Source: a virus (lineage: Duplodnaviria; Heunggongvirae; Uroviricota; Caudoviricetes). Taken from it: 39,144 nucleotides of DNA. The notes beneath the pieces are model-generated. The model saw only the letters and a list, made by a program, of their open reading frames with translations, ran no database searches and was not told the DNA's origin. Position 1 is the first letter of the stretch; each line of letters opens with the position of its first letter. The translations under genes and the position numbers were made by a program. This document shows positions 1-39,144 of this stretch, in pieces. The DNA lies in IMG/VR virus record IMGVR_UViG_2778261089_000004; one strand, 5' to 3'.

Positions 1-768
1 TTATTTTCCTGGTGATTCGGATGATGCGTCATACATCGCGCATAAACACTCATCAATTATCCAGTCATCTTCCCAGACCTGATATTCTGTCATTGGTTCG
101 GGCTGTTTTAGCGGGTTCTCAATCGCTTGCCGCGCTCTTTCTTTCAGTAAAGGATGATTATTTCTAGCCCAGGCATTGATTTGGGTGGTAATGACGTTAT
201 CGATATCGTCCTGGTTATCTCTGATATAATCCTCACAATATCTGTTCAATAAACAGGCAAGAGAAACGGTCGACCAAAAGCCGGGAACTGAATTAATGGC
301 ATCCAGCAATGGCGCAAGAGCGATATCGGCACGGAAAAACATTTCCAGCATATACTGTAATTCGACAGCTTCATCGCCGGATACCCAATCAGTCATATAC
401 TGGCAGGCAAATCGTTGCAAAATTTTCCATTCATCCTCACGCCAATTTTCTTTACTGGCAAGGTTTATACGCCGTAGAGAAAATACTTCGTGAATATTGT
501 CAAACTGCCCCTGTGCAACAAATTCCAGTAAACGCGGCAGAAAATAGCGGACCTCATCGCTATTTTGCGGATCAGGCCCTGGGCTACTATTCCATGCATT
601 GATTAAGGAATACGAGATCGCTCGTAACGATGTACTCCGTAATACCTTTTGTTCCTGCTGACTCAGGCAATATTCACAACAAACCACAAATTTCTGCGGC
701 ACCGGATAACGACGAAAAATATGATAAATCTGCTCAATTAATGCCTGCATGGCGGGGCTGGGTTGCAT
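1..768 (-). CDS. hypothetical protein (255 aa), last gene of a three-gene minus-strand cassette; stop codon is the first three bases of the window
   Basis: Complete ORF; its start lies 3 nt past the stop of the upstream gene (771). No recognisable domain; Cys pair near N-terminus (VVCCEYC). Confidence 0.55.
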   Translation of the reverse strand: MQPSPAMQALIEQIYHIFRRYPVPQKFVVCCEYCLSQQEQKVLRSTSLRAISYSLINAWNSSPGPDPQNSDEVRYFLPRLLEFVAQGQFDNIHEVFSLRRINLASKENWREDEWKILQRFACQYMTDWVSGDEAVELQYMLEMFFRADIALAPLLDAINSVPGFWSTVSLACLLNRYCEDYIRDNQDDIDNVITTQINAWARNNHPLLKERARQAIENPLKQPEPMTEYQVWEDDWIIDECLCAMYDASSESPGK

Positions 769-770
769 AA

Positions 771-1481
771 TTACCCCCTCGCCCGCTGATCGCGTGTAAA
801 CGGTTGATAGACAAAACGAGCATTCGCCGCGTTCAGGCGAATAAGGGCGCTACGCGAAAGGGAAAAGCTGGGGCGAATGCAACTATTGCAGTCTCGACAG
901 CTTTCCTCTGCGCAATTTTCCACTGAGTAATGACGCGTGTAGAGTTTCAGTTCGGCCTGCTTATCGCGAAATCCGCGTAAACTGTTATTGTTATGAAATT
1001 TCCAGGCATCTTTTAAGACCTGAAAGATATAGACATCCTCAATCCAGGAGTCACATTTTTTAAGCGGGCGCTTTGCTATTATCACCCGCTCATCCGGATT
1101 TAGCATCGCCGTAAATTGTACGGTGACGTCATTTGTCGTGTTCAGGTCACATTGAACATCTGGTACATCACTGATATAGGGGTCAAATCCAAAATCAGCA
1201 CCACAGGCACAAAGACGGCTAATGGTGGCGGTATCGAGGGAAAATCCCGGCCATACCTTGCTGGAGGTTAAGCCAATATTTAATGTGACATTATATCGAA
1301 GCAATCCCTCAAGACCGTCAGCACCGACGAACTTTTCCCCTTCATCCAGGGCCTGGTTAATGAGTTGCTGAACAATGCCTTCATCCCAGTATGCCGATTT
1401 GCAGTTGGCAATCGTAATATCCACGCCAGTGAATGGATCAGTACCGACAAGGCTTGCAAATAATGTATTAACTAATTCCAT
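771..1481 (-). CDS. hypothetical Cys-rich protein (236 aa), middle gene of cassette
   Basis: Complete ORF tightly packed between neighbours; C-terminal cluster C-x4-C-x2-C-x2-C (CAEESCRDCNSC) suggests metal binding. No family recognised. Confidence 0.55.
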   Translation of the reverse strand: MELVNTLFASLVGTDPFTGVDITIANCKSAYWDEGIVQQLINQALDEGEKFVGADGLEGLLRYNVTLNIGLTSSKVWPGFSLDTATISRLCACGADFGFDPYISDVPDVQCDLNTTNDVTVQFTAMLNPDERVIIAKRPLKKCDSWIEDVYIFQVLKDAWKFHNNNSLRGFRDKQAELKLYTRHYSVENCAEESCRDCNSCIRPSFSLSRSALIRLNAANARFVYQPFTRDQRARG

Positions 1482-1495
1482 TTTTATTATCCGCC

Positions 1496-3013
1496 TTAAT
1501 GCAACGTTTTATACATCGGCACATAACCTACATCTTCCACCAGGCTCTGCCCCTGCGGCGTTAAAAACCACTCCACCAATTTTTGTGTTTCTGACGTCAT
1601 ATTTTCCCGCGTTACCATAAAGGCATCGACGATATAGGGATATTTGCCGTTGCGAATGTTTTCGGCAGTCGGTGCAATACCGTTAATCGCTAGCAGTTTT
1701 ATATTTTTATCGGCGTTCATTTGTGTTGCGTAATAACGGAAGGTGTAACCTATTGCGTTGTTTGTATTACGGTATTCGGCAACGACTTTAATCATTCCCT
1801 CCATCATACTTGCCACTTCTGTTTCCTGCGGCGAGATCATGCGGACATTTTTCATGACCTGGGATTGCATCACCGTCTGGCTACCAGAGTCTTCCGGGCG
1901 TTGCCAGGTCTGGATCTCCTGATCGTTACCGCCAACCGTGCGCCAGTTGGTAATTGCACCACTGAAGATGTCACGCACTTGTTGTTCGGTCAGGGAATTA
2001 ACCGGGTTATCTACATTGACGATGAAAACAAACGCTTCACGGGCAAAAGGCGTGTAAATCAAAGTGACGCCCGATTCCTCCGCGCGTTTTTTCTGCCCAC
2101 CGGAAGGTTGAGCCACAAAGATAATATCGGCATTACCTTTAACAATCTTGTTATATGCTTCGGGAGTACGAGAGTTCGCCAGATATTCCCATTCGTGAAA
2201 ATCTTCCGGCAAAACGCTTAGTGCATAAAAGGCAGAGGCATAAATGGGGTACGCCGCCGTTGCGCCATCAAGTCGCGGCCAGTTTTGCGTGAACTGAATT
2301 TGCGGTTTACCACGCAGTGGTGTCAGTTGATTATTGAGTTTATCGGGTCGCCAGGCCCAGGTATCAATATTTTCACGCACACCGACGCCGGGATTAAGCT
2401 GTTTATATAAATAAGCCTGGTAACCGGCGACAAAACCAAGCATGAGAAGGATAAACAAGAGAGAATTACGGCAACGTAACCCGGACGTGCCCGTTAAAGG
2501 ATATCTGGTCGGCCAGCCGTACCCCAGCGAAAAACTGATATGCGCGCCAACAGGTATAATGACTAACCACCAGTACTCACCACCGACTAATGAGGCTAAC
2601 AAAACGCCCAGCCAGGGGAGCATAAGATCAGCCAACCAACCCGCTCCCATCTGGCGAAATTGATAATCTGCCAGATGCAGCGCGATTATCCAGACCCCCA
2701 GGGTTAATAATGCGGGTACTAAAAAAAGACATTGTCGCCAGACGGCTATTTCTCTTTTTTCTGGTGCACTATCGTCCGCCCACACTCGCCCCGAGAAAAA
2801 TAGCATTAATGCGCCCAGCGCCAGCATAAAAATGTTGAGCAGAAGGTAAATTGTTGGCGTGATAAAGATATTACAAACTTCAATAATACCGGCAAGTCCG
2901 ACACCCAGCATGGCAATAACCGCCGCCAAAAACTGCGCCAGAATGGGGATGCCGAAAAAAGTCATTACCAGCGAGGTCAAAATCCATTTTCTGTTTTGCA
3001 TTATTCTTTCCAT
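1496..3013 (-). CDS. integral membrane protein with C-terminal PstS-like (periplasmic phosphate-binding-protein-type) domain, 505 aa
   Basis: N-terminal about 230 aa with multiple hydrophobic helices; C-terminal half resembles type-2 periplasmic binding domains of the PstS family (e.g. FSGAITNWRTVGG). Start may be the Met at 3001. Domain call from memory. Confidence 0.6.
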   Translation of the reverse strand: MERIMQNRKWILTSLVMTFFGIPILAQFLAAVIAMLGVGLAGIIEVCNIFITPTIYLLLNIFMLALGALMLFFSGRVWADDSAPEKREIAVWRQCLFLVPALLTLGVWIIALHLADYQFRQMGAGWLADLMLPWLGVLLASLVGGEYWWLVIIPVGAHISFSLGYGWPTRYPLTGTSGLRCRNSLLFILLMLGFVAGYQAYLYKQLNPGVGVRENIDTWAWRPDKLNNQLTPLRGKPQIQFTQNWPRLDGATAAYPIYASAFYALSVLPEDFHEWEYLANSRTPEAYNKIVKGNADIIFVAQPSGGQKKRAEESGVTLIYTPFAREAFVFIVNVDNPVNSLTEQQVRDIFSGAITNWRTVGGNDQEIQTWQRPEDSGSQTVMQSQVMKNVRMISPQETEVASMMEGMIKVVAEYRNTNNAIGYTFRYYATQMNADKNIKLLAINGIAPTAENIRNGKYPYIVDAFMVTRENMTSETQKLVEWFLTPQGQSLVEDVGYVPMYKTLH

Positions 3014-3132
3014 TCTTTCTGAATGGCGAAATTATACTCCCCGAGTCCCCTTGCTGATGCGCCGCGCGATAAACGTACCTATTTCCGTGAGATAAATTAC
3101 ATCGCCGCGGCATTTCAATATCAGAAAAAGAA

Positions 3133-8169: not shown

Positions 8170-8225
8170 GGAGGCAGTATTGCCCCCGGGAAGTAAGCGC
8201 CGATATTAAAGGCGTTTAAGAAGGT

Positions 8226-10988: not shown

Positions 10989-13453
10989 CAGCTGTACTCC
11001 TTACGTTGTTTCTGAGCCAGCAGACGCTCCAGCATTTTTTCCAGCTCATGCAGGCTCATATTCAGGGCACCAGCCAGCCCGGCAGGCGCTGCGGTTTCCT
11101 TACCATTGAGGAAAAACTGAGGATTAAAGCTGACCTGGATACCGCCAGACGCTCCACCGCCGGTTGCCGTTGCGCCACGGCCTGAATATCCGGCAGCCAT
11201 GATTTCCGGCGACGGGATACGGGGAACATCCGGTGTCATTTCAGCGGCCAGGCGCTGCCCGGCCAGTGCAGCAAGCGGAGTGGTTCGTTGCAGGCCAATG
11301 GCGGCACCCTGCGCGATATTGTCACCAAAGCCTATAAACACGCGACTCGGTGAATGGATGCCCAGCTTTTCGCTGAACCAGTCACTGATGCTGTCACCCA
11401 TTCCGGTTATGCTGGTTTTCAGTGACGCCCATTTGTTTCTGATGCCATTTATCAGCCCGTCAATAAGATGACCACCGAAGTCGGTGAATTTCGCCGGCAA
11501 ATCAACGCCGAGATATTTCAGCGCAGCCGCAAAGGCTTTATAAAGCAGACCTGCCGGAGACCAGTTAACCAGCAGTTTACCAGTTCCCGCGATACCGCCG
11601 TTAAAGGCTTCCTGAATGTCAGCCCAGCGCTGTTTAAACCAGCTACTGACCGCGCCCCAGTTGCGGTAGATAAGGTAAGCTGCTGCCGCGACGGCGGTGA
11701 TAGCGAGACCGATGGGATTCATCATCAGCGCCCGGCCAATCCAGAGAACGGCACGCCCGGCGCTCATAATTCCGCGAACCAGCCCCCCTGAGAGCACACC
11801 ACCCAGTGTTCTGGCTCCTCTGGCGACAGCACCAAAGCCTGTCACCAGCCAGCGGAGTTTACCGCCTTCCCCCAGTGCGAGCGTCAGACGAAGCCAGTTG
11901 GCCCGAAGTAAAACAGCATTTTTCCAGACGCTTACAAAGGGGGAAAGAAGGAGATTCAGCCCAAGCTTGAGACCGATAGTGGCCATCCTGAAAGCGAGTA
12001 ATGCGCCCACAACCTTTATGGTGCTGCTGACGAGCTGCGGATTTGCCGCTATCCATTTGCCAACACTGTCCATTAAAGGAATAAATGTTTCACCCAACTG
12101 GAGCAAAGCCGGACGCAAGGATTGCCCGATGCTGATAGCAGAATCATTAAAGCCGATCTGCATTCTGCGCCAGCGGCCTTCAAGCGTATCATTCTGCTTT
12201 GCAGCATCCTTATCCAGGGTAGAAATTGCAGCCGGAGCATTCATTTCCTGCTTACTGGAAAGGTATTTATCCCAGCCCTGTCGCATTGACAGTAAATGGT
12301 TGACAGTCTGAATATCGGTAAAGACCTCAGCCAGACCAAATGACTCCATGAGTTTCTGCTGACCTTCCTGATCGCCTCTTGCTCCTGCAGCTTTCCATTG
12401 CTGCAAGAACGCTTTGCCTTTACTGTCGATAAAACGGTTGGCAATCATCAGTGAAGCTTCGTACTGCGAAAAACCCTGAGCGACGTAATTCTGCATTGAC
12501 CCCTGGTAATCCACCCCGGCTTTAGCATATTTCTGGATGGTATCTCCGCGGCCCATTGCTGCCAGCCAGTTGGACATATTGGTGACCGCTTCCTCTGCAG
12601 AGCCACTACCTTTACCGACCTCCAGACTGGCAACAATCTGGGTAATCGCATCTTTTCCATAAATACCACGAGCAGCGAAGGCTTTAGCCATACCGGGTAA
12701 TGCTTTTGCCATATCCTTCAGCTCAAATGACCCAAGTTTGGCTCCTGTTGCCGCAATACCAAACGCCTGTTCAAGTTCTTTCGCATCAGTGATTCTGAGT
12801 GCATCGCTGAAGGCATAAGTCATTTTGGCAAGGTCGGTCATATCGGCTTTGGTTGCTGTAGCGGTCTTTCCAAGCATCTCTGCAAACGTTGCTGCCCGTT
12901 CGGGGGCCATACCATCAGCAACTAATTGTCCGACTCCCCCTAACAGAGACTCCTGCAGTTGGTTAACCTTCAGCGAGGCCTGTCTGATAGCCTGGCCAAT
13001 TGCACGTTCCTGTTTTGCATCCAGGTCTCCTGTGACACTGATATCCCGCAACTGTGATTCAAACGAGGCATATTGTTTAACCGAGGCCATGACCGGTGCG
13101 CCCAGCGTTCTGCCAATAGCATAGGTTTCTGCACCCTGACCATAGAGCGCCAGGCGGTTAGCCTTCAACGCATCACCGATGGCTGATACTGCTGACAGAC
13201 GGCGCTGCTGACGTTCAATTTGCTCCATGGTGCGGCTTACCCGCAGCAACTCGCTGTTGAGATGCAGCATCCGGGAAGAACCCAACTGACCATAACGTTC
13301 TGTTGCCCGGGTTAAGGCATTCTGGCGTTCCTGCAGACGGCGGGAGGTATCACCAAGGGAATCAAGGGCGCGTCGGGTGCCACTGACGGCTGAGCGGAAG
13401 CTGCTCCCGACAATGCCGCCAATAATGACGCCGACTGAAAATTCACTGGCCAC
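10988..13453 (-). CDS. tail tape measure protein
   Basis: 821 aa, alpha-helical Ala/Gly-rich, Gly-rich C-terminal tract; GTG start with RBS AGAGGA; position after the chaperone pair. Confidence 0.85.
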   Translation of the reverse strand: MASEFSVGVIIGGIVGSSFRSAVSGTRRALDSLGDTSRRLQERQNALTRATERYGQLGSSRMLHLNSELLRVSRTMEQIERQQRRLSAVSAIGDALKANRLALYGQGAETYAIGRTLGAPVMASVKQYASFESQLRDISVTGDLDAKQERAIGQAIRQASLKVNQLQESLLGGVGQLVADGMAPERAATFAEMLGKTATATKADMTDLAKMTYAFSDALRITDAKELEQAFGIAATGAKLGSFELKDMAKALPGMAKAFAARGIYGKDAITQIVASLEVGKGSGSAEEAVTNMSNWLAAMGRGDTIQKYAKAGVDYQGSMQNYVAQGFSQYEASLMIANRFIDSKGKAFLQQWKAAGARGDQEGQQKLMESFGLAEVFTDIQTVNHLLSMRQGWDKYLSSKQEMNAPAAISTLDKDAAKQNDTLEGRWRRMQIGFNDSAISIGQSLRPALLQLGETFIPLMDSVGKWIAANPQLVSSTIKVVGALLAFRMATIGLKLGLNLLLSPFVSVWKNAVLLRANWLRLTLALGEGGKLRWLVTGFGAVARGARTLGGVLSGGLVRGIMSAGRAVLWIGRALMMNPIGLAITAVAAAAYLIYRNWGAVSSWFKQRWADIQEAFNGGIAGTGKLLVNWSPAGLLYKAFAAALKYLGVDLPAKFTDFGGHLIDGLINGIRNKWASLKTSITGMGDSISDWFSEKLGIHSPSRVFIGFGDNIAQGAAIGLQRTTPLAALAGQRLAAEMTPDVPRIPSPEIMAAGYSGRGATATGGGASGGIQVSFNPQFFLNGKETAAPAGLAGALNMSLHELEKMLERLLAQKQRKEYS

Positions 13454-13964: not shown

Positions 13965-14040
13965 GATCGTGCTCCTGTGTAAGTTCAGGGCAGTATGTCT
14001 GGCGGTGGACGTAACGGATATTAAAGGAGATTAAGAAGAA

Positions 14041-17796: not shown

Positions 17797-18750
17797 TTAT
17801 TTACTGATACCGGTGATGAGATACCCTGCATCGCCACCCACCACGGCGACTTTGTAGATATCGGTATAACGGCAGTACTTCACCTTGCCGCCGGCTCCGT
17901 CGTATTTGTCGGCAACAGGCATTCCCTTACGACGCAGGGTGTAGCCGAAGGACGGCTCGTTCTCGTCCGCGCTGTCCGCCCCCGGCTGCGGCTTGCCGAC
18001 GTAGTGCAGCATCAGGTTGTCTCCCCAGATATCCGTCGGCACGCTGTCCTTATCCATTGCCGTTTTCATGGACGGCAGGGAGACAGGGGCACCGATGACG
18101 ATCTCTTCGATCTGAAAGAGGTCCCGCAGGATCTCAGTGGTGATGCGCTTGCGCTCGTTGGCTCCGATGGCAGCCTGAATTGCCGGGTGGAACTTCAGCA
18201 GCGCCATCACGCTGGCCCCCATGGTCATCAGGTTAGGACGCAGCCCCGTGGCAGTACGGACCGCTTCCATACCGGCTTCAATCACCCCGATGGGGTCACC
18301 TTTACCACCGGCCCAGCGGTCGCCGGACGTCAGTTTTTTGACGTGCCCGGTACGGTAGACCTTTTCATCCTGGGCCAGACGGGCAGCGATAAGTTCACGG
18401 CGCAGGTTCACGCCATTCGTGGCGCGACGGATGGCCTTGCTCTCTTCGTTAAACATGGACTCCGCCTGCTCGCGATAGTCCACCGGCGCAGCCAGATCGT
18501 GCTCACCCAGTACCAGGTCCAGCGTGCCGGTTTTCTCACGGACCAGAACATTGCTGTCCGCCCCGACAGCACGCTCAGTGTCATATTCCACAAAGGCGGT
18601 TTTTCCGAAGGTCGGTACACGCACGCCTTCCTTGTCCGTCAGTACGACGGGGAAAATACGTTCGCCGATGAATGCAGCATTTTTATAGCCACGGGCGATA
18701 CTGGTCAGTACAGGATCAACGACACGTTTACCTTTTAAGTAATCAGACAT
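17797..18750 (-). CDS. major capsid protein (Mu T-like)
   Basis: 317 aa; RBS AAGGAG before ATG; follows protease/scaffold gene as in Mu. Confidence 0.85.
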   Translation of the reverse strand: MSDYLKGKRVVDPVLTSIARGYKNAAFIGERIFPVVLTDKEGVRVPTFGKTAFVEYDTERAVGADSNVLVREKTGTLDLVLGEHDLAAPVDYREQAESMFNEESKAIRRATNGVNLRRELIAARLAQDEKVYRTGHVKKLTSGDRWAGGKGDPIGVIEAGMEAVRTATGLRPNLMTMGASVMALLKFHPAIQAAIGANERKRITTEILRDLFQIEEIVIGAPVSLPSMKTAMDKDSVPTDIWGDNLMLHYVGKPQPGADSADENEPSFGYTLRRKGMPVADKYDGAGGKVKYCRYTDIYKVAVVGGDAGYLITGISK

Positions 18751-18764
18751 GCTCTCTCCTTAAA

Positions 18765-19880
18765 TTACAGGCAGCGTGCGACAGCAGCCTCATAGCTGAT
18801 GCCTTCTTTTTTCGACAGGGCCACTGCTTTCTGATGCAGGGCCAGACGCTCAGGATCGGCTTCCGCAAACTCCGCCACATCCACCTTCACCGCGTCGCCA
18901 ACACGATCCTTTGTGGCCTGTTCGGCGAAGTTCATCACCGGCTCCCCGTCGGAGAGCAGCGAACGGAAGGCGGTGGCCAGCGGTGTACGGTTTTCTCCCT
19001 CGGCAAACTCCACCGGTTTGTCGCCACCGGCGACGGCATCCAGCAGGGCAACCACCACGGAAGAGGCGCGGGGAGCCAGACGGCCCTCTGCGACCAGTTT
19101 TTCTGCAAAGGCCACATTGTCCTTATGCAGTTGCTCCTGTCTGACCTGTGCATCACGCGCATCGCGATCAGCAGCCTGCTGCTTCAGGCGGCGGTTCTCC
19201 TCCTGAAGGGCTTCAATCTCTTCTTTTGTCATCGATGATTCCTCGTTACTTTTGGAAGACGGCACCCGGCCTGTCTCACTGAATTGCGCACCTGCAGCAT
19301 CCTGCGACGCTGTGTCGCGGTACGCCTCTTCGCGCAGATTGTTGAGCTGCCATTCCGGCAGGACTTTTTCTGCCTCGTCCAGACTGAAGCGGGCGATCAG
19401 AAAATCGCGCAGCTTTCCCCACAGGGAGGCATTCGTGATGGCCTGCCAGTCGGCGAACTCCACCACACCTTCTTCCTGCTCACTGAAGGACACCTGTTTC
19501 AGCCCTTTGACGGAAGGTGGCTGTGCCCCGAGAAAGCCCACATGGCGAAGGTAGAGCACGCCGGGCTTCGGATTGGACGGTGAATCCGGGAGGTAGAAAG
19601 AGGCGGACACTTTTTTGAATCGTCCGTCGGTGACCATCTCAGCAAACTGCGGGTCCAACTGGGCAGGCTCTGCCATCAGATCGACGCCGCTGAGCGACAG
19701 GGCTTTCACCCAGCCCCACGCCGGGTCTTCCGTTCTGGGATGACCAATCACGAGTGGTGCTTCATGGACGGACGGGTCATAGGCTTTCACGCAGGCGGCA
19801 AGATCGTCTGGCGTGAACGGCAGTTTTTTGCCGTGCATATCGGTATGAGTACCGGCTTTAAAAATGTGAATGGCTGACAT
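18765..19880 (-). CDS. head protease / scaffold protein (Mu I-like)
   Basis: 371 aa; N-terminal protease-like region and acidic coiled-coil C-terminal scaffold-like region (EEIEALQEENRRLKQQ). Confidence 0.85.
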   Translation of the reverse strand: MSAIHIFKAGTHTDMHGKKLPFTPDDLAACVKAYDPSVHEAPLVIGHPRTEDPAWGWVKALSLSGVDLMAEPAQLDPQFAEMVTDGRFKKVSASFYLPDSPSNPKPGVLYLRHVGFLGAQPPSVKGLKQVSFSEQEEGVVEFADWQAITNASLWGKLRDFLIARFSLDEAEKVLPEWQLNNLREEAYRDTASQDAAGAQFSETGRVPSSKSNEESSMTKEEIEALQEENRRLKQQAADRDARDAQVRQEQLHKDNVAFAEKLVAEGRLAPRASSVVVALLDAVAGGDKPVEFAEGENRTPLATAFRSLLSDGEPVMNFAEQATKDRVGDAVKVDVAEFAEADPERLALHQKAVALSKKEGISYEAAVARCL

Positions 19881-20094
19881 TTTGCTGTCCCGCGTTATGT
19901 TGTCGGAGACAGTTTGTGAGAAATGCAGGCCCGGCGATTTTAATCTGCTTTAGAAAACATCAGGGGAGAAGGACAGGGAAAGCAATGCGGTGAACCGGAG
20001 GCGGTTATAAAACAGAGGCTGTAAAGCCTTTATAAAGGTAATACAGCCCCTCATTCGCTGGCAATGATAAATCACCCGCCTGAAGAGAGAAACC

Positions 20095-20556
20095 TCAGCG
20101 ACGGGCCGCTGATTCAAGATGGCGGACAATGGTATCGAGGATGGGGATTACCACTTCAGGCTGTAGTTCTCCATCCCCCGTCACCGGCAGGAACGGGCGG
20201 GCCGGAAGTTCAACAGACTCATTACGCCCCGTTTTACCCCCGAACTGGTGAATGGCACCGTAAACAACGTTGGTCCCCACAAGAGCCTGCCGGTCGTCAT
20301 GGTCGGTTGATACTGACCCCATCAGACGCCCGGTATCCTGCAGTGTCTGCCCGTCACGTTCTTCCGCTGCCAGCGAGGGTATCCACCCCGGACGCCCCTC
20401 ATCAAGAAAGTTAAACTGTGTTTCCGCCAGCAGGGTTCCGGCAATTTTGCGCATCGCGGGTTCCAGATCTGTGGCAGAGAGCTCCAGTGCGCGGAGACTC
20501 CGGCGCAGGGATTTATCGTTAATGGTGATATTGACCAGTTTATCGGAAGCCATCAT
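20095..20556 (-). CDS. virion morphogenesis protein (Mu G-like)
   Basis: 153 aa; position between F-like and I-like genes. Confidence 0.75.
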   Translation of the reverse strand: MMASDKLVNITINDKSLRRSLRALELSATDLEPAMRKIAGTLLAETQFNFLDEGRPGWIPSLAAEERDGQTLQDTGRLMGSVSTDHDDRQALVGTNVVYGAIHQFGGKTGRNESVELPARPFLPVTGDGELQPEVVIPILDTIVRHLESAARR

Positions 20557-27355: not shown

Positions 27356-27485
27356 GTGTGTCTCCTTGTCTGGTGGAGACAGCATCACAAATACAGGGCG
27401 CGAAGGATTTTAAAGCGCGTTAAGAGAGCCGGGGATACGGGATGTGCAGGATAAACGATGAATTATTCACAGAGGAGAATACGAT
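27356..27485. promoter_or_regulatory. divergent intergenic region: presumed late-operon promoter (minus) and accessory-operon promoter (plus)
   Basis: 130-bp gap between two divergently oriented first genes, each with a strong RBS; no sigma70 consensus confidently identified. Confidence 0.4.
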
Positions 27486-28229: not shown

Positions 28230-28282
28230 CGCAGAATATTTTGCCGGTGAGTACATAAAAATCATCATTTAAGGAGTGCATC

Positions 28283-28498
28283 ATGAATCCCCGATTAACG
28301 TTAACAGAACATCAGCGCCGTGCTGAAGCAGTGAACAATGTTCTGGAAGATATTATCCGGTTATACCGCGGAGAACTGAGTGTCTGTCGTGCCGCTTTTC
28401 ATTTTCAGGGAATACAAAAGCAGTTTGATACTTCTGTTTTTGCAGAAGGTATTACTTATGCCCTGGACCGGATAAGGTCAGAAAATCGCCCCGGATAA
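28283..28498 (+). CDS. small hypothetical protein (71 aa)
   Basis: RBS AAGGAG before ATG, 53 bp after the P-loop gene; no family recognised. Confidence 0.55.
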   Translation: MNPRLTLTEHQRRAEAVNNVLEDIIRLYRGELSVCRAAFHFQGIQKQFDTSVFAEGITYALDRIRSENRPG

Positions 28499-28552
28499 TC
28501 CCTAAACCACATTAACAGAAATCCCGCCATCCCTGCCGCATCATGAAAGAAC

Positions 28553-28584
28553 GACCAGCCCGGCACCCGAAAGCCGGGCTGGTC
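28553..28584. terminator. strong GC-rich stem-loop between the 71-aa gene and dam
   Basis: Perfect 11-12-bp stem accagcccggc / gccgggctggt with 8-nt loop; no clean U-tract on the plus strand. Confidence 0.4.
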
Positions 28585-28688
28585 ATCGCCCCACAGGAAT
28601 GCGCTGTGAGCCGACCAAGGTTCAGTCAGTCTCGCGAGACCTGACCAGACTGCCATATTTTTTAATAATTGTAAAAGGCTTACAGATT

Positions 28689-29453
28689 ATGAAAATGCAG
28701 ACATTACCCATCGTGCCGTGGATTGGTGGCAAACGTCGCCTTGCAAAACACATTCTGCCGCTGTTTCCGGCGCATGAATGTTATGTGGAGCCGTTTTGTG
28801 GGGCAGCAGCGCTCTATTTTCTTAAGACACCTGGTAAGCTCGAAGTCATTAACGATATCAATGGTGAACTGGTGAATCTGTACCGGGTGGTAAAGCATCA
28901 CCTGGAAGAATTTGTCCGCCAGTTCAAATGGGCGCTGGTCAGCCGTCAGATCTACAAATGGCTGCAAATCACCCCGGAAGAAACACTGACGGATATCCAG
29001 CGTGCAGCACGGTTCTACTACCTTCAGAAGCAGGCGTTTGGCGGCAAGGTGGCAGAGCACAGCTTCGGTACCTCCACCACATCCCCGCCACGCTTCAACT
29101 TGCTGCGTATTGAAGAAGAACTGTCAGCGGCACACCTGCGACTTTCCAGAACAGTCATAGAACACATGGACTGGCAACAGTGCATTGAGCGTTATGACCG
29201 CCCGCACACGCTGTTCTACTGCGACCCGCCGTATCTGGGTACGGAAGGCTATGGTGTGGATTTTCCTGAAGGGAACTACTCGCGGCTGGCAGAGCTGGCC
29301 CGGTGCATCAGAGGAAAAATGATAATTTCGGTGAACGACATCCCGCAGATGCGCGAGGTGTTCACTGGACTGAACATACAGACAGTGAATATCAACTACA
29401 GTCTGGCGGGCAAATCAACGCCGCGCCGTGAGCTGGTGATTTGCAATTTTTAA
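28689..29453 (+). CDS. dam: DNA adenine methyltransferase, Dam family (orphan, no cognate nuclease seen)
   Basis: PWIGGKRRL, VEPFCGAAALYF, DINGELVNLY and catalytic DPPY motifs match Dam-type N6-adenine methyltransferases; start at internal Met MKMQTLPI. Confidence 0.9.
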   Translation: MKMQTLPIVPWIGGKRRLAKHILPLFPAHECYVEPFCGAAALYFLKTPGKLEVINDINGELVNLYRVVKHHLEEFVRQFKWALVSRQIYKWLQITPEETLTDIQRAARFYYLQKQAFGGKVAEHSFGTSTTSPPRFNLLRIEEELSAAHLRLSRTVIEHMDWQQCIERYDRPHTLFYCDPPYLGTEGYGVDFPEGNYSRLAELARCIRGKMIISVNDIPQMREVFTGLNIQTVNINYSLAGKSTPRRELVICNF

Positions 29454-29466
29454 AAGAGGTAGTTAA

Positions 29467-29491
29467 AGGTGGTGCATCTGCAGCACCACCT
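29467..29491. terminator. stem-loop between convergent dam and lipoprotein genes, putative bidirectional terminator
   Basis: Perfect 9-bp stem aggtggtgc / gcaccacct with 7-nt loop between the two stop codons; flanking U-tracts are weak. Confidence 0.45.
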
Positions 29492-29497
29492 AAACAT

Positions 29498-30025
29498 TTA
29501 ATCCAGCCTTGGACAAGTCCAATAATCATTATCTGGATCAGGTGAATAAACCTTCAAACAACCCGCTCGCGGGGGCTTATCATCATCTGTCATCGGAACA
29601 TTTTCTTTATCCAGTTTCACAGTCAAGTCTCCACCGGGAACATCCGTTTTATCAAAAAAAACAGCCTGACATGCTGATTTAGGTATTTTCACTTCATGGG
29701 CATTATTGGATATGAACAAATAACAATTATTGCCAGAAGCTATGTAGTCACTTGGAATGTTATTTTCGTCTTTAATATGAAACTGCACAGTTGTCACCGG
29801 GCGTTCGCTATCCTTGGATACTTCAATTTTTTCAAAACTGCCCGCGTACTTATCTAGGCCGGGGAGTTGTTGGCGAATAAATTGTAATTCACGATTTACA
29901 ACAGGATTATCTGTTTCAACGCTAAAAACATCGTGCTCCTTAGTTGTGGTGGACATATCAGCTGGGGCAGTATTATCTCCACAGCCAGATAAAACAAATA
30001 TCAACGGTATAAATAATTTACGCAT
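29498..30025 (-). CDS. lipoprotein (putative superinfection-exclusion or lysogenic-conversion factor)
   Basis: Signal peptide MRKLFIPLIFVLSGC with lipobox LSGC; RBS AAGGA 7 nt upstream of the Met at 30025; AT-rich gene directly downstream of and co-oriented with the repressor gene. Confidence 0.7.
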   Translation of the reverse strand: MRKLFIPLIFVLSGCGDNTAPADMSTTTKEHDVFSVETDNPVVNRELQFIRQQLPGLDKYAGSFEKIEVSKDSERPVTTVQFHIKDENNIPSDYIASGNNCYLFISNNAHEVKIPKSACQAVFFDKTDVPGGDLTVKLDKENVPMTDDDKPPRAGCLKVYSPDPDNDYWTCPRLD

Positions 30026-30066
30026 CGTCATGTCCTTATACATTTAGTGTTCTTAATAGGAACAGA

Positions 30067-30477
30067 TTAACCCGTATTTTTTAATCTCTCGAACTCTGCG
30101 GACAGCTCCTTAAGCTGTTTTTCCATATTAATCATTCGCTGTTTTTCTTCAGCGCCTCGCAGTAACTCTTTCCGCACTTCTGGATCCAGTTGGTTGAGCA
30201 ACTCTAATAACTTCAGGTCAGATTGGCTGAAATGCTGCTCTTGATTAGTCAACTGTACTTTCTCTACTCCCACAGTTTCCCCTTTACCAGTAAGTAGCCA
30301 ATCTATCGATATGTTCAAATGAGCACTCAATGCAACAAGAGCTTCTGCATTAGGCTCTCGCTCTCCACGTAGATAATTTTGAAGTGAGCGATATGGAATT
30401 TTCGATAAATCAGATAATGCCTTGATTGTCAGACCTTTAGCAACCATCGCTTCGCGCAATCTCTCTTTTATACTCAT
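30067..30477 (-). CDS. prophage repressor, XRE/Cro-C1-type HTH (c-repressor analogue)
   Basis: HTH LTIKALSDLSKIPYRSLQNYLRGEREP near N-terminus, C-terminal coiled coil; divergent from early operon across an operator-like region. Start taken as MSIKERL at 30477. Confidence 0.75.
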   Translation of the reverse strand: MSIKERLREAMVAKGLTIKALSDLSKIPYRSLQNYLRGEREPNAEALVALSAHLNISIDWLLTGKGETVGVEKVQLTNQEQHFSQSDLKLLELLNQLDPEVRKELLRGAEEKQRMINMEKQLKELSAEFERLKNTG

Positions 30478-30565
30478 TTGAACACATCTCAATTTGACAC
30501 ACTCATTCGGGTGTGTACAATAGACCCAATAGAGTACATCATAACCCAACAGGAACACGGTGCAT
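30478..30565. promoter_or_regulatory. divergent repressor / early-operon promoter-operator region
   Basis: Plus strand TTGACA (30494-30499), 16-bp spacer, TACAAT (30516-30521) upstream of the ner-like gene; inverted repeat ACACAC-N8-GTGTGT (30497-30516) overlaps the spacer. Confidence 0.55.
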
Positions 30566-30790
30566 ATGAACAAACAACAAGTTCGAGCACGACTGGTTGA
30601 ACGAGGCAGTAGCCTGCGCCAGTTTGCGCTTAACGCGGGCTATGAGCCACGAACTGTTACCCAGGCTGTTAGCCGCTGGGCAGGCAAAAGTGAACTTCCA
30701 CGCGGTCGTTTGACTTATCGGATTTTGCGAGACCTTTCTGTTGCAATAGGTAAGGAAGTTACCCCCGGTATCCTCAAGGAGGCGTCATGA
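30566..30790 (+). CDS. ner: Ner-like DNA-binding protein (Ner/Nlp family)
   Basis: 74 aa, first gene of early operon divergent from repressor; pattern LRQFALNAGYEPRTVTQAVSR resembles Ner-family proteins. Family call from memory. Confidence 0.6.
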   Translation: MNKQQVRARLVERGSSLRQFALNAGYEPRTVTQAVSRWAGKSELPRGRLTYRILRDLSVAIGKEVTPGILKEAS

Positions 30791-31095
30791 GTAAACCAAA
30801 TACATCAAGCTCAGGTACTCGTATTTTGCGTGTTCTTAAGGCCTTACGTGGTCACACTCTGAATGGTGTTTCTAATGGTGAATTGGCATTAGCTCTTGGT
30901 GAGTCCCCGGCGAATATCAATCGGGCACTAAATACCCTTATCGAAGAGGGACTAGCCCTAAAACTGGAGAACGGACGTTTTGCGCCAGGCATCCAGTTAC
31001 TGCAGATCGCCATGGCTCACAGTAACGAGATGGCGCGAGCACAGGATCGTATTAACGAAATCAATCAGCGAGTTATATCAGGTAGCTACCTGTAA
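30787..31095 (+). CDS. small winged-helix DNA-binding protein (IclR-type HTH-like)
   Basis: RILRVLKAL...NGELALALGESPANINRALNTLIEEGLA resembles IclR N-terminal HTH domains. Confidence 0.5.
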   Translation: MSKPNTSSSGTRILRVLKALRGHTLNGVSNGELALALGESPANINRALNTLIEEGLALKLENGRFAPGIQLLQIAMAHSNEMARAQDRINEINQRVISGSYL

Positions 31096-31105
31096 GGAGT
31101 GATTA

Positions 31106-32023
31106 ATGGGACGCACCAAATCACCGGTTAACACTGAACTGAACGCCGAGGTACCGCTGTCGGATGATCTCAACGTCAGCCTGAATGCCATGACACAGCA
31201 TCGTATGGAGATCATGCAGCAGTTCGGCGACGGCCTGCCCTATGAACGTGAACGCATCGTTCACGAGGCTCGATTTTATATGGACCAGAGTGCGGAGGCT
31301 ATGCTGGAGGCAGGTAAGCGTTTGGTTATCCTGAAAGAAAATGAACCTCATGGAGAATACGTACAAATCGTCAAAGAACAGTTGAACCTTGAACCACGCA
31401 TAGCCCAAAAAATGGCCCAAGCTGCTCTGAAGTTTTTATCTCCAGAACTGACATCAAAAGCGAAAACGTTTTCGCATTTGGGAAGATCAAAACTGTACGA
31501 ATTGATGTTAGAGGATGACGAAGATCTTGCTGAACTGGCCGACGGCGGCACAGTCGCCGGCCTGACGCTTGACGACGTTGATCGCATGTCAGTACGTGAA
31601 TTGCGTCAGGCCCTGCGCGAAGCGCGCGAAACCAACGCAGCACAACAGCGCGTACTCGCCGACAAAAATGAAAAAATCGACTCACTTTCCACCAGACTGG
31701 AGAAGAAATCCCGTATTCAGCCACCCGAGCCTGATGAAGAGGTGAAGAAGCTGCGGGCGGAAGTGACGGCATTAGCGGTTGAGGCGGAATCTGCCATCGC
31801 CGTCCGGCTGTCCGGTGCCTTTGAAACCCTGTGTGAATACTGCAGTAAAAACATGATTGATACCCCCAGAAATTTCATGGCTGGTCTGGTCTGCCAGATT
31901 GAACGCAGTGTTCATGCATTGCGTGAGACGTTTGACCTTGATGCCGCACCATCGGGTAACGATGTCCCCGCCTGGCTGACCGAACCGGAGCCTGAAATCA
32001 ACCGACCGGAGGGCATGCGTTAA
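31106..32023 (+). CDS. early-region protein with coiled coil (possibly DUF3102-like)
   Basis: 305 aa; family recollection only. Confidence 0.45.
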   Translation: MGRTKSPVNTELNAEVPLSDDLNVSLNAMTQHRMEIMQQFGDGLPYERERIVHEARFYMDQSAEAMLEAGKRLVILKENEPHGEYVQIVKEQLNLEPRIAQKMAQAALKFLSPELTSKAKTFSHLGRSKLYELMLEDDEDLAELADGGTVAGLTLDDVDRMSVRELRQALREARETNAAQQRVLADKNEKIDSLSTRLEKKSRIQPPEPDEEVKKLRAEVTALAVEAESAIAVRLSGAFETLCEYCSKNMIDTPRNFMAGLVCQIERSVHALRETFDLDAAPSGNDVPAWLTEPEPEINRPEGMR

Positions 32024-38341: not shown

Positions 38342-38783
38342 ACAACGTCTTATCCAGCTCATTCATATTGCCCGTAATGAACTGGGTATGGATGAAGACA
38401 CCTACCGCCAGATGTTACAGGGGCTGACCGGTAAAGCCTCAACCAAAGGAATGGATACCACACAACTAAACTGCGTGCTGGAATCCATGAAAAGGAAAGG
38501 CTTTCGCGTTAAGCCTGCCGGAAAAGCCAGCTCCGGTTTACCGCTGGATAACCATCCGCAGTCCAGGAAAATCCGTGCGCTATGGCTTGAAATGGCTGCT
38601 GCCGGCATTGTTCGTGACCGTTCAGAAAATGCATTAGCGCGGTGGATCAAGCGGGAAACGGGCATCAGCGCCCTGCGCTGGCTCAATACTGAACAGGCAA
38701 GTAGTGTTATTGAGAAACTGAAGAAGTGGCAGCGCAGAGCTGCGGGAGTAAAACATGAGCGACCTGAATCAGTTTCGAAGTAA
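38331..38783 (+). CDS. gemA: GemA-like protein (Mu gp16 family)
   Basis: RBS AAAGGAG before ATG; N-terminal KQRLIQLIHIARNELGMDEDTYRQML pattern typical of GemA-family proteins; directly precedes Mor-like gene as in Mu. Confidence 0.7.
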   Translation: MMTKQRLIQLIHIARNELGMDEDTYRQMLQGLTGKASTKGMDTTQLNCVLESMKRKGFRVKPAGKASSGLPLDNHPQSRKIRALWLEMAAAGIVRDRSENALARWIKRETGISALRWLNTEQASSVIEKLKKWQRRAAGVKHERPESVSK

Positions 38784-39144
38784 AGGGCCGGAACTCCTGG
38801 TGGAACTGGCACAGCATACCTCTGAGACCGTTCGCGAGATTATTGATATTGAGCCCGCAATTGCCGACCAGATTGGTCAGGCCGTCGCGAACCGCATGAT
38901 GCAGGTCTGGGGCGGGCAAAACGTTTATTTCCCGATGGGCATGGTATGGAAGGTCAGTCAGCGCGACCGGGAAATCTTCAGGGAGTTTAACGGACGTAAC
39001 CACCATGAACTGGCCCGCAAATTTGGTGTTTCGCTTCAGTGGGTCTACAGCGTGGTTAAGCGGGTAAGAAAAGAAGAACTGGATCGGATGCAGGGCAAGC
39101 TATTTGCTGATGAACCCGATGTAGATACGGAGAAAAAAGAGTAA
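38755..39144 (+). CDS. mor: Mor/C-family transcriptional activator of middle/late genes
   Basis: 129 aa; C-terminal HTH HELARKFGVSLQWVYSVVKR as in Mu Mor and C; RBS GGGAG; stop codon ends the window. Confidence 0.8.
   Translation: MSDLNQFRSKGPELLVELAQHTSETVREIIDIEPAIADQIGQAVANRMMQVWGGQNVYFPMGMVWKVSQRDREIFREFNGRNHHELARKFGVSLQWVYSVVKRVRKEELDRMQGKLFADEPDVDTEKKE

Follow-up and report, generated by a model that had tools for sequence, protein, structure and literature searches.

A predicted Mor-type late promoter and an end-of-operon module with a conserved palindrome in the G-I gap of a BcepMu-like prophage of Escherichia coli

We analyzed the 214-bp gap that separates the G-like and I-like head genes of a prophage contained in the IMG/VR virus record IMGVR_UViG_2778261089_000004. 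The whole stretch of 39,144 nucleotides (nt) that was analyzed is called the window, and positions refer to it. In our judgment, the gap is probably for the most part an ordinary Mu-like junction between two late operons. Its 3' 77 nt resembled a late promoter for gene I that would be activated by a Mor-family protein, and its 5' 90 nt formed a module that would end the preceding operon. The original prediction had described the gap as a candidate cis-acting site or as a landing pad for a small gene. The cis-acting region was borne out, and so was the landing pad for the family of related phages, but the content with the best support, the late promoter and the end-of-operon module, had been missed. 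A palindrome at the midpoint of the genome is a conserved element that the junction model does not explain.

The element belongs to the transposable prophages of E. coli and is BcepMu-like (Bcepmuvirus). The closest phage record was Escherichia phage PhiKM (Bcepmuvirus), which matched the window at 99.7%, and Klebsiella phage KP12 matched it at 86%. Of the 5426 complete E. coli genomes, 639 (~12%) contained the same prophage, many ST131 strains among them. The layout was that of BcepMu, with lysis, terminase, portal, F, G, I, capsid and P2-like tail genes on one (minus) strand. The early region, which is divergent, carried the genes for a transposase, a B-like ATPase, Gam and GemA and closed with the gene for a Mor-family activator.

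The G-I gap and its conservation

The G-like open reading frame (ORF; 153 aa, Pfam Phage_tail_S, E 6e-23) ran from 20556 to 20095 on the minus strand and ended with a TGA stop codon at 20097-20095. The I-like ORF (371 aa, ATG at 19880-19878, minus strand) was 48-52% identical to BcepMu gp32, the 'Mu I equivalent'. The non-coding gap proposed between these two genes was exact at 19881-20094. Its GC content was ~0.48, compared with 0.58-0.62 in the flanks, and it was the longest non-coding stretch of the late-gene block, where the other gaps measured 56, 98, 130 and 175 bp. PGAP called no gene in the gap of identical or near-identical E. coli prophages.

To compare the junction among relatives, 75 related loci (449 kb) were fetched with a profile of the I protein. 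A G-I gap of 185-250 bp was present in about 60 of the 75. The gap measured 196 bp in Mu, 202 bp in BcepMu and 190 bp in B3, and it was also present in RcapMu and phiSHP3. When the window type was compared with the KP12 type, third codon positions in G and I were 0.72-0.79 identical, while the first 86 nt of the gap were 0.88-0.90 identical and box B, the putative activator site described below, 0.92. Blocks of the gap were therefore better conserved than the synonymous sites of the flanking genes, in agreement with the proposal that the gap contains cis-acting sequence. The anatomy of the gap, the motif statistics, the conservation and the presence of an activator gene were all read directly from the genomes. 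The literature searched, which did not include the original BcepMu paper, gave no account of the box motif, of the palindrome or of how the leader is designed in BcepMu-like phages.

A putative Mor-type late promoter upstream of gene I

The following features were found in the 3' part of the gap.

19936-19957, minus strand: box B, TTTTCTAAAGCAGATTAAAATC, the predicted Mor-family activator site, centred near -43
19911-19916, minus strand: -10 hexamer CAAACT, 19 nt past box B, with a predicted transcription start at ~19904
19885-19912, minus strand: inverted repeat CTGTCTCCG..CGGGACAG, -10.7 kcal/mol, z -4.3

These features suggest that a Mor-type late promoter serving gene I, an analogue of Mu P_I, occupies the 3' part of the gap, and we consider this probable as part of the junction model as a whole. 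The pattern TTAA-N5-TTTAAWATC, followed after 20-21 nt by AnnCTGyC, occurred in four minus-strand intergenic regions of the window. It was exact at 27423 (holin gene), 14034 (tail-assembly gene) and 8219 (gp25/W-like baseplate gene), and the copy in the gap (19953) agreed with the pattern from these three other late-operon sites at 17 of 19 positions. Apart from the four promoters, no site reached 16 in the 78 kb that both strands make up, and none of 200 shuffles gave a site of at least 17. The -10 hexamers implied for the four promoters of the window were GATGCT, CAAACT, CATACT and AATACT. In Mu, the late promoters carry TAGACT and CAAACT at an equal distance from their own upstream box (TAGACTGCC, CAAACTGAC), and the gap had the very hexamer that the Mu record places at P_I, with the same spacing from the upstream box; it is of the nAnACT type seen in Mu late promoters. 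A scan of the minus strand of the gap for the sigma-70 consensus found no promoter and no -35 element, which is how an activator-dependent promoter is expected to look.

The same arrangement was present in most relatives. About 55 of the 65 related gaps, ranging from E. coli to Burkholderia, contained TAAA-N3-GATTAAAAG with A..CTG 21 nt further on. The box consensus was kept in 44 distinct relatives, and A..CTG at that distance was at least 90% conserved. Box B stood at a fixed distance from the start of I, which was 49-62 nt among the gamma-proteobacterial lineages and 33-34 nt among the beta lineages. The identical 19-mer TAAAGCCGATTAAAAGACC had exactly two copies in the BcepMu genome, one upstream of the holin gene and one upstream of gene 32 (I), and the box of the baseplate promoter was likewise conserved in BcepMu.

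A single Mor-family protein was encoded in the window (38755-39144; PF08765 (Mor), E 1e-43). It was 54% identical to BcepMu gp01, annotated as a late transcriptional activator, with a near-identical helix-turn-helix, and 31% and 37% identical to Mu Mor and Mu C, respectively. The conservation of the box from E. coli to Burkholderia and its difference from the box of Mu fit this relationship, because the activator is near to BcepMu gp01 and far from Mu Mor and C. At Pm, the Mor-dependent middle promoter of Mu, Mor is reported to bind near -43, and the two TTAA half-sites of the box in the gap centred near -43 as well. The Mor site of Mu Pm (AGTAAAGCCGGTTAATCC) also resembled the box of BcepMu (CGTAAAGCCGATTAAAAG). 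We propose that the single Mor-family activator of the phage would bind box B and that transcription would start near 19904 from a promoter without usable -35 element. This promoter would drive the protease/scaffold gene, the capsid gene and the genes downstream, with a leader of 24 nt from the predicted start to I. It is likely that this one Mor-type activator drives all four late promoters. The four promoters and their likely common activator provide an operon map for an otherwise unannotated element.

P_I of Mu is a documented C-dependent promoter, one of four C-dependent late promoters in that phage (PMC4461284). The window resembled Mu in the location of the promoter between G and I, in a phage-encoded activator of the Mor/C family, in an upstream box ~20 nt before a weak -10 without -35, with CAAACT identical to P_I, and in having four such promoters per genome. 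TGTGATG in the holin promoter of the window also resembled Mu Pm, and the box resembled the Mor site of Pm (GTAAAGCCG.TTAA). In contrast, the box of the window (TAAA-N3-GATTAAAAG / TTAA-N5-TTTAAWATC) was unlike the C box of Mu (CCATAACCCC), a single activator apparently serves all late promoters instead of a separate Mor-then-C cascade, and the early region of the window is inverted relative to the late genes.

The three further Mor-type late promoters extended over 27375-27427, 13986-14038 and 8170-8223 (minus strand), and their transcripts are predicted to start near 27371, 13982 and 8166, respectively, with each start placed 11 nt past the conserved A of the -10. At the promoter at 8219 the predicted start coincided with the ATG, so that the mRNA would be leaderless. 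A pyrimidine-rich tract was located just upstream of the activator box both in the window (TTGCTTTCCCTGTCCTTCTCC at 19963-19985) and in Mu (TTCCTTTCACTTTCTTTCTCC at 17954-17975 of the Mu record), and no other local alignment of the two gaps on the same strand was better than that of these tracts (p ~0.06).

The leader may fold back in read-through RNA

The 5' arm of the inverted repeat covered positions -8 to +1 of the predicted promoter, and its 3' arm covered the Shine-Dalgarno region of I. If the -10 hexamer is assigned correctly, RNA initiated at the promoter would be unable to form the leader hairpin, because the 5' arm lies at -8 to +1. The mean pairing probability of the Shine-Dalgarno sequence was 0.78 in read-through RNA and 0.44 in RNA from the predicted +1, and a drop in pairing of more than 0.2 was found in 24 of 32 lineages. 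A leader hairpin (z below -2) was present in 37 of 54 distinct relatives with unrelated stem sequences, such as CTGCCTCTAT/ATAGAGGCAG in Photorhabdus and GCTGTGCGC/GCGCACAGC in Pseudomonas, and the stems covaried between lineages (loci L011-L090). The P_I leader of Mu (CTGCTCA/TGAGCAG) and the leader of the holin gene of the window (27357-27379, minus strand) also had an inverted repeat. The repeat at the holin gene, like that at gene I, would pair the -8 to +1 region of its promoter with the Shine-Dalgarno sequence of the first gene.

In IS10/Tn10, translation of the transposase from read-through transcripts is limited by fold-back inhibition. The leader of gene I likely follows the same design, in which the ribosome-binding region can pair with sequence that lies before the element's own transcription start, and a hairpin can form only in transcripts that come from outside. 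If only upstream read-through RNA forms the hairpin, I would be translated from promoter-initiated transcripts and not from read-through. It differs from IS10/Tn10 in that the repeat stands at the late-operon starts of a transposable phage and that the design was read from sequence, covariation and predicted starts. Late-operon starts may have a construction that confines translation to RNA initiated at the promoter. Such a fold-back would shield a randomly inserted prophage from read-through transcription of the host.

A putative end-of-operon module follows gene G

The module in the 5' 90 nt of the gap consisted of the following features.

20095-20112, minus strand: hairpin TCAGCGGCCCGTCGCTGA, then GGTTTCTCTC, overlapping the stop codon of G, terminator-like in the scan
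20060-20080, minus strand: element S, GGCGGGTGATTTATCATTGCC, a conserved DNA block 14-34 nt past the stop codon of G
20015-20050, minus strand: hairpin of 36 nt built around element A, GGGGCTGTA-TTA-CCTT-TATA-AAGG-CTT-TACAGCCTC
20019-20038, no strand assigned: element A, made up of the palindrome CCTTTATAAAGG and its flank GCTTTACAG, in which TAAAG/CTTTA pentamers form an array
20007-20014, minus strand: U-tract TGTTTTAT, directly past the 20050-20015 hairpin

We propose that the lysis/terminase/portal/F/G operon would end here with the hairpin at the G stop codon, block S, the strong hairpin around A and then UGUUUUAU. As RNA, the hairpin at 20015-20050 had a folding energy of -19.3 kcal/mol (z -4.4), and none of 200 shuffles folded as well. 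Together with the UGUUUUAU that follows, it is a stable GC-containing hairpin with a U-tract, as in an intrinsic terminator. The hairpin and U-tract are thus most likely a terminator or attenuator of the lysis/head-1 operon in this phage, where they would stop or reduce transcription, with RNA 3' ends predicted near 20007-20014. The box at 14034 was likewise directly preceded by a canonical terminator (GGGGCTCCGGCCCC and a T-run), suggesting that a terminator followed by a Mor box is the junction design of this phage. GC-rich hairpins directly past the G stop codon were also found in BcepMu (GCGCGCCTC..GAGGCGCGC) and in Pseudomonas relatives (GGAGCGC..GCGCTCC).

Element S showed no change from the window type to the KP12 type and was invariant among enterobacterial relatives down to ~65% protein identity. 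Its core GCGGGTGATTTAyC was kept in the Photorhabdus, Xenorhabdus and Erwinia relatives, but not in those of Burkholderia and Pseudomonas. S contained GATAAATCAC, which it had in common with the left-end transposase-binding repeat. GATAAATNAC occurred only twice in the window, both times on the plus strand, at 3091-3100 in the left-end transposase-binding repeat and at 20066-20075 in S; the expected count was 0.16, and at least two copies occurred in 3 of 100 shuffles. We considered S as an internal transposase-binding site and keep this idea as no more than a weak lead, since only the 7-mer GATAAAT fits the end-repeat consensus G(C/A)GATAWWT.

The palindrome of element A, yTTTATAAAr, occurred 50 times in the 75 related loci, and all 50 occurrences were in the G-I gap. 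It was present once in the BcepMu genome, and B3 had it as GTTTATAAAC though no box B was recognisable there; it was not found in RcapMu or phiSHP3. It was located 48-91 nt past the G stop codon, was inverted in some Pseudomonas lineages, and stayed beside G when cargo genes were inserted. An nhmmer profile of the S/A module matched the window with E 9e-12 and BcepMu with E 1e-6, without a comparable score elsewhere in those two genomes. A second copy of the palindrome (GCTTTATAAAGCCTTTG) was noted inside the tape-measure gene of the window (11530-11546) and was also present in strain 97.3; this copy is probably there by chance, because it was absent from the ST131 variant.

Several points weigh against the junction model. 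The box in the gap had two mismatches to the three-site pattern, and most relatives had AAG instead of ATC as the final bases of the box. Even in the RNA that is predicted to start at the promoter, the Shine-Dalgarno region remained paired with a probability of 0.44. The terminator structure was not conserved: significant folding around the palindrome was found in 9 of 39 distinct relatives, U-rich tails in 11-17 of the 39, and the KP12 type had a degraded U-tract with the sequence CCCGCTTTGC. The start site, the dependence on Mor and termination, like activator binding and the fold-back effect, are what we infer from the sequences. Finally, elements S and A are left over by the model. Termination cannot explain the invariance of the palindrome, because the hairpin is not conserved and the U-tract was lost in KP12. 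We therefore dropped the reading of element A as a family-wide conserved terminator and kept the terminator for the phage of the window. At element A, it is the DNA sequence that is conserved and not the RNA hairpin.

Element A was also considered as a sigma-70 or Mor-type promoter for cargo genes. This was rejected as a general role, as TTTACA-N17-TCTAAT or TTTAAT was found in the Photorhabdus and Erwinia types but was lacking in the window and in most of the other lineages.

A possible counterpart of the Mu strong gyrase site

The original prediction had stated that in Mu the strong gyrase site (SGS) lies between G and I, which was correct: the 196-bp gap of the Mu record contained, in this order, the cut site of gyrase (20 nt past the stop codon of G), a predicted terminator and the late promoter P_I. 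It is conceivable, though we think it rather unlikely, that element S and palindrome A (20007-20080) form a functional equivalent of this site. Gyrase or another architectural factor might then loop the ~36-kb prophage so that its ends synapse for replicative transposition, a role that we put forward tentatively. Such a role would add to the promoter and terminator of the junction model and does not compete with them, and the packing of the gyrase site, the terminator and P_I into one G-I gap in Mu is compatible with this.

The position of the elements fits this idea. S and A were located 14-87 nt past the G stop codon, between G and I like the Mu SGS; S began 14 nt past the stop codon, and the Mu cut site is 20 nt past it and upstream of the terminator and P_I. 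The gap was at 46.7% of the 36,253 bp of the prophage and at 48.4% in the ST131 version, compared with 51.0% in BcepMu, ~51% in B3 and 48.7% for the Mu SGS, although a central position follows from the conserved gene order anyway. The behaviour of the palindrome also suits a site that acts at the DNA level and is recognised by a host enzyme that is itself conserved, because it was unique in each genome, confined to the gap (50/50), kept in hosts of very different GC content and in either orientation, and stayed with G. Its absence from RcapMu and phiSHP3 speaks against the idea.

A/T phasing gave an ambiguous result. In the first 130 nt of the gap, phasing at 10-11 bp ranked at p 0.012-0.031 within the window, and 30 of 61 relatives were below 0.05. 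Mu, used as a positive control, gave p 0.032-0.066 (97th-99th percentile). The periodicity spectrum was, however, not specific to 10.5 bp and showed other peaks, and BcepMu had no signal.

Gyrase sites were expected in transposable phages other than Mu but could not be found by similarity (PMC2628397). In the Pseudomonas phage Ab30, 37 bp right after the G stop codon were free of self-insertions, and the authors proposed a gyrase site there (PMC5977238). This segment corresponds to 837-873 of locus L097 (record 18736-18772), starts at the G stop codon and overlaps the inverted repeats GGCACATTGTGCC and TAGGCACAATGTGCCTA. We take these repeats to be Aca1 operators of the anti-CRISPR promoter, and if they are, they offer an alternative explanation for the protection from insertion in Ab30. 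Central sequences of other Mu-like prophages were reportedly tested by Oram and Pato in 2004 (J Bacteriol 186:4575) and by Oram et al. in 2006. The 2004 study reportedly included the Mu-like prophage of Salmonella Typhi CT18, and if this prophage is BcepMu-like, the outcome is directly relevant to the S/A module.

Direct comparison argued against the idea. The alignment to the Mu SGS suggested in the original prediction gave no significant similarity to the Mu or Sp18 sites (p 0.06-0.48), while the Sp18 site aligned to the Mu site's right arm with p ~0.002 at the same offset; the right arm is the essential determinant of the SGS (PMC10052514, PMC13284261). The nhmmer profile of the S/A module had no match in Mu or Sp18. 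Matches to a published 130-bp gyrase consensus were tried as a surrogate, but the control failed, as the true Mu site ranked only 214th in Mu. In the position matrix of Sutormin et al. 2018, the Mu SGS has a score of 14.3, compared with a genome mean of -2.7. We also compared S with the gyrase cleavage core of Mu (GCGGcTGATTT, inverted; GCGGGTGATTT versus GCGGCTGATTT; p 0.44 against dinucleotide shuffles) and examined CTTCAGGCG.GTG, which was shared with Sp18 (p 0.09 against dinucleotide shuffles). The likeness to the cleavage core was dropped because it was not significant and the core is not conserved between Mu and Sp18. In the Mu-like, Sp18-like prophage of E. coli O157:H7 (L093 464-543), the F-like and G-like genes flank a 'tRNA-OTHER' that RefSeq places on the opposite strand.

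Taken together, the module and the Mu SGS have in common the G-I gap a few nt past the G stop codon, upstream of a terminator and P_I and near the genome midpoint, and both are unique conserved A/T-rich elements in a GC-richer genome. They differ in that the module has no detectable similarity to the Mu and Sp18 sites, the essential right arm included, and in that its conserved core is a short palindrome and not extended phased bending signals. S together with yTTTATAAAr, which lies at the midpoint in BcepMu-like and B3-like transposable phages, might, with considerable doubt, be the long-missing SGS equivalent of non-Mu transposable phages, a mark of the centre whose signature is visible by eye and unrelated to that of Mu. 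If this is true, a site that acts through gyrase, another factor or a property of the DNA would pin the apex of a supercoiled loop and unite both ends of the prophage. The palindrome gives a short and concrete candidate for the central site that non-Mu transposable phages should require.

A sequence-specific protein other than gyrase may bind the palindrome

Element A could instead be the site of a sequence-specific protein, such as additional Mor dimers or another phage or host protein, and act as a roadblock, an insulator or an architectural element. We regard this as improbable. The pentamer TAAAG, of which the palindrome is composed, recurs in box B and in the Mor site at Mu Pm; the reverse complement of A (GTAAAGCCTTTATAAAGG) agreed with box B of BcepMu (GTAAAGCCGATTAAAAGA) at 13 of 18 positions, and both resembled Mu Pm (AGTAAAGCCGGTTAATCC). 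A is conserved at the DNA level irrespective of orientation, and its distance from S varied by one helical turn between lineages (41 versus 30-31 nt). On the other side, the three other Mor-type promoters of the window had no such palindrome, and in B3 the palindrome was kept while box B was unrecognisable, so that A is uncoupled from the specificity of Mor. Moreover, A is not a proximal upstream activator site, because cargo can place it 0.4-2 kb away from box B.

The spacer is a slot for accessory genes in relatives

The promoter and the end-of-operon module are separated by a spacer.

19958-20006, minus strand: variable spacer of 49 nt with a CT-rich tract at 19963-19985, the point of cargo insertion in relatives

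The 46-nt middle of the gap was 0.51 identical to the KP12 type, with offsetting 1-nt indels. This unconstrained spacer is the place where relatives carry accessory genes. In 11 of the 75 related loci the gap was 356-2260 bp long and contained ORFs, with cargo between element A and box B in six loci (L044, L060, L061, L068, L078 and L081) and upstream of A in two. Encoded in the cargo were an EEP-family nuclease and its partner of 177 aa, an HNH endonuclease, a DUF5677 protein, a cassette of a PAAR toxin and two small ORFs, a Bro-N/HTH protein and, in Pseudomonas, unknown proteins of 275-285 aa. None of the cargo genes examined matched a defence family in PADLOC, and none was recognised as acr or aca by Pfam and PADLOC. 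Cargo-bearing loci included L032, L036, L044, L060, L061, L068, L078, L081 and L084, with the cargo at roughly 750-2500 in each.

Comparison of the junction across relatives, as the original prediction had suggested, thus revealed inserted accessory genes. The G-I junction is a landing pad in the family, since the cargo of relatives sits there and in six loci precisely between A and box B; the gap of the window itself is empty. The statement in the original prediction that Pseudomonas Mu-like phages carry anti-CRISPR genes between G and the protease/scaffold gene was accurate (PMC3993853). The BcepMu-like relatives use the identical junction for 0.3-2.2 kb of unrelated accessory genes, and their cargo is bracketed by conserved sequence, A on the G side and box B on the I side. 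They differ from the Pseudomonas anti-CRISPR locus in that the window has no insert, that the cargo of relatives is not recognisable as acr or aca, and that the conserved flanks are not an Aca1-controlled acr promoter. The G-I junction therefore takes up accessory genes generally in BcepMu-like phages, beyond the anti-CRISPR phages of Pseudomonas, and is for this reason a good place to seek new counter-defence or toxin genes.

The small open reading frame is not a gene

The gap holds a single small ORF.

19950-20054, minus strand: ORF of 34 codons (ATG at 20054, stop at 19950; 59 codons from a TTG at 20129), not a gene

It is very improbable that the gap encodes a small protein (34, 41 or 59 codons) or a small regulatory RNA. 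The ORF exists, and RAST, alone among the annotations, calls its counterpart in KP12 as a 41-aa hypothetical protein; the hairpin with its U-tract could also mark the 3' end of a short RNA. However, in the KP12 type the ATG at 20054 was replaced (QRMRG to QPLRG) and the C-terminal half was unrelated because of offsetting indels, and in the Photorhabdus and Xenorhabdus relatives the frame was closed by a stop codon. The doubt expressed about this ORF in the original prediction was therefore justified. Conservation in the gap followed palindromic blocks and not a codon pattern, and PGAP called nothing at the ORF. The suggestion of a small RNA fared no better: no Rfam family matched the gap at the gathering threshold or at E values up to 1, and a consensus scan of the minus strand upstream of the hairpin found no promoter for a short RNA.

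Ends of the prophage and neighbouring sequence

The ends of the prophage were fixed by comparison of two insertion sites. The left end (TGATGCGCC...) was at 3055 of the window, and the right end (...TCTAATCA) was 163 nt past the window (39307-equivalent). In an ST131 strain, the prophage was inserted between aroA and ycaL with a target duplication of 5-6 bp.

Because the left end is at 3055, positions 1-3054 of the window are not phage sequence. This part contained three ORFs on the minus strand, at 1-768 (255 aa), 771-1481 (236 aa) and 1496-3013 (505 aa). PADLOC gave no match for the three. The 505-aa ORF had a C-terminal PBP_like_2 domain, and the other two had no Pfam match.

When the window prophage was compared with the ST131 variant (L091), the immunity and early-regulatory region (28230-31400) was ~83% identical or had no match, while the remainder was 90-98% identical. 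The tail-fibre/invertase end likewise differed between the two, suggesting modular exchange in both regions.

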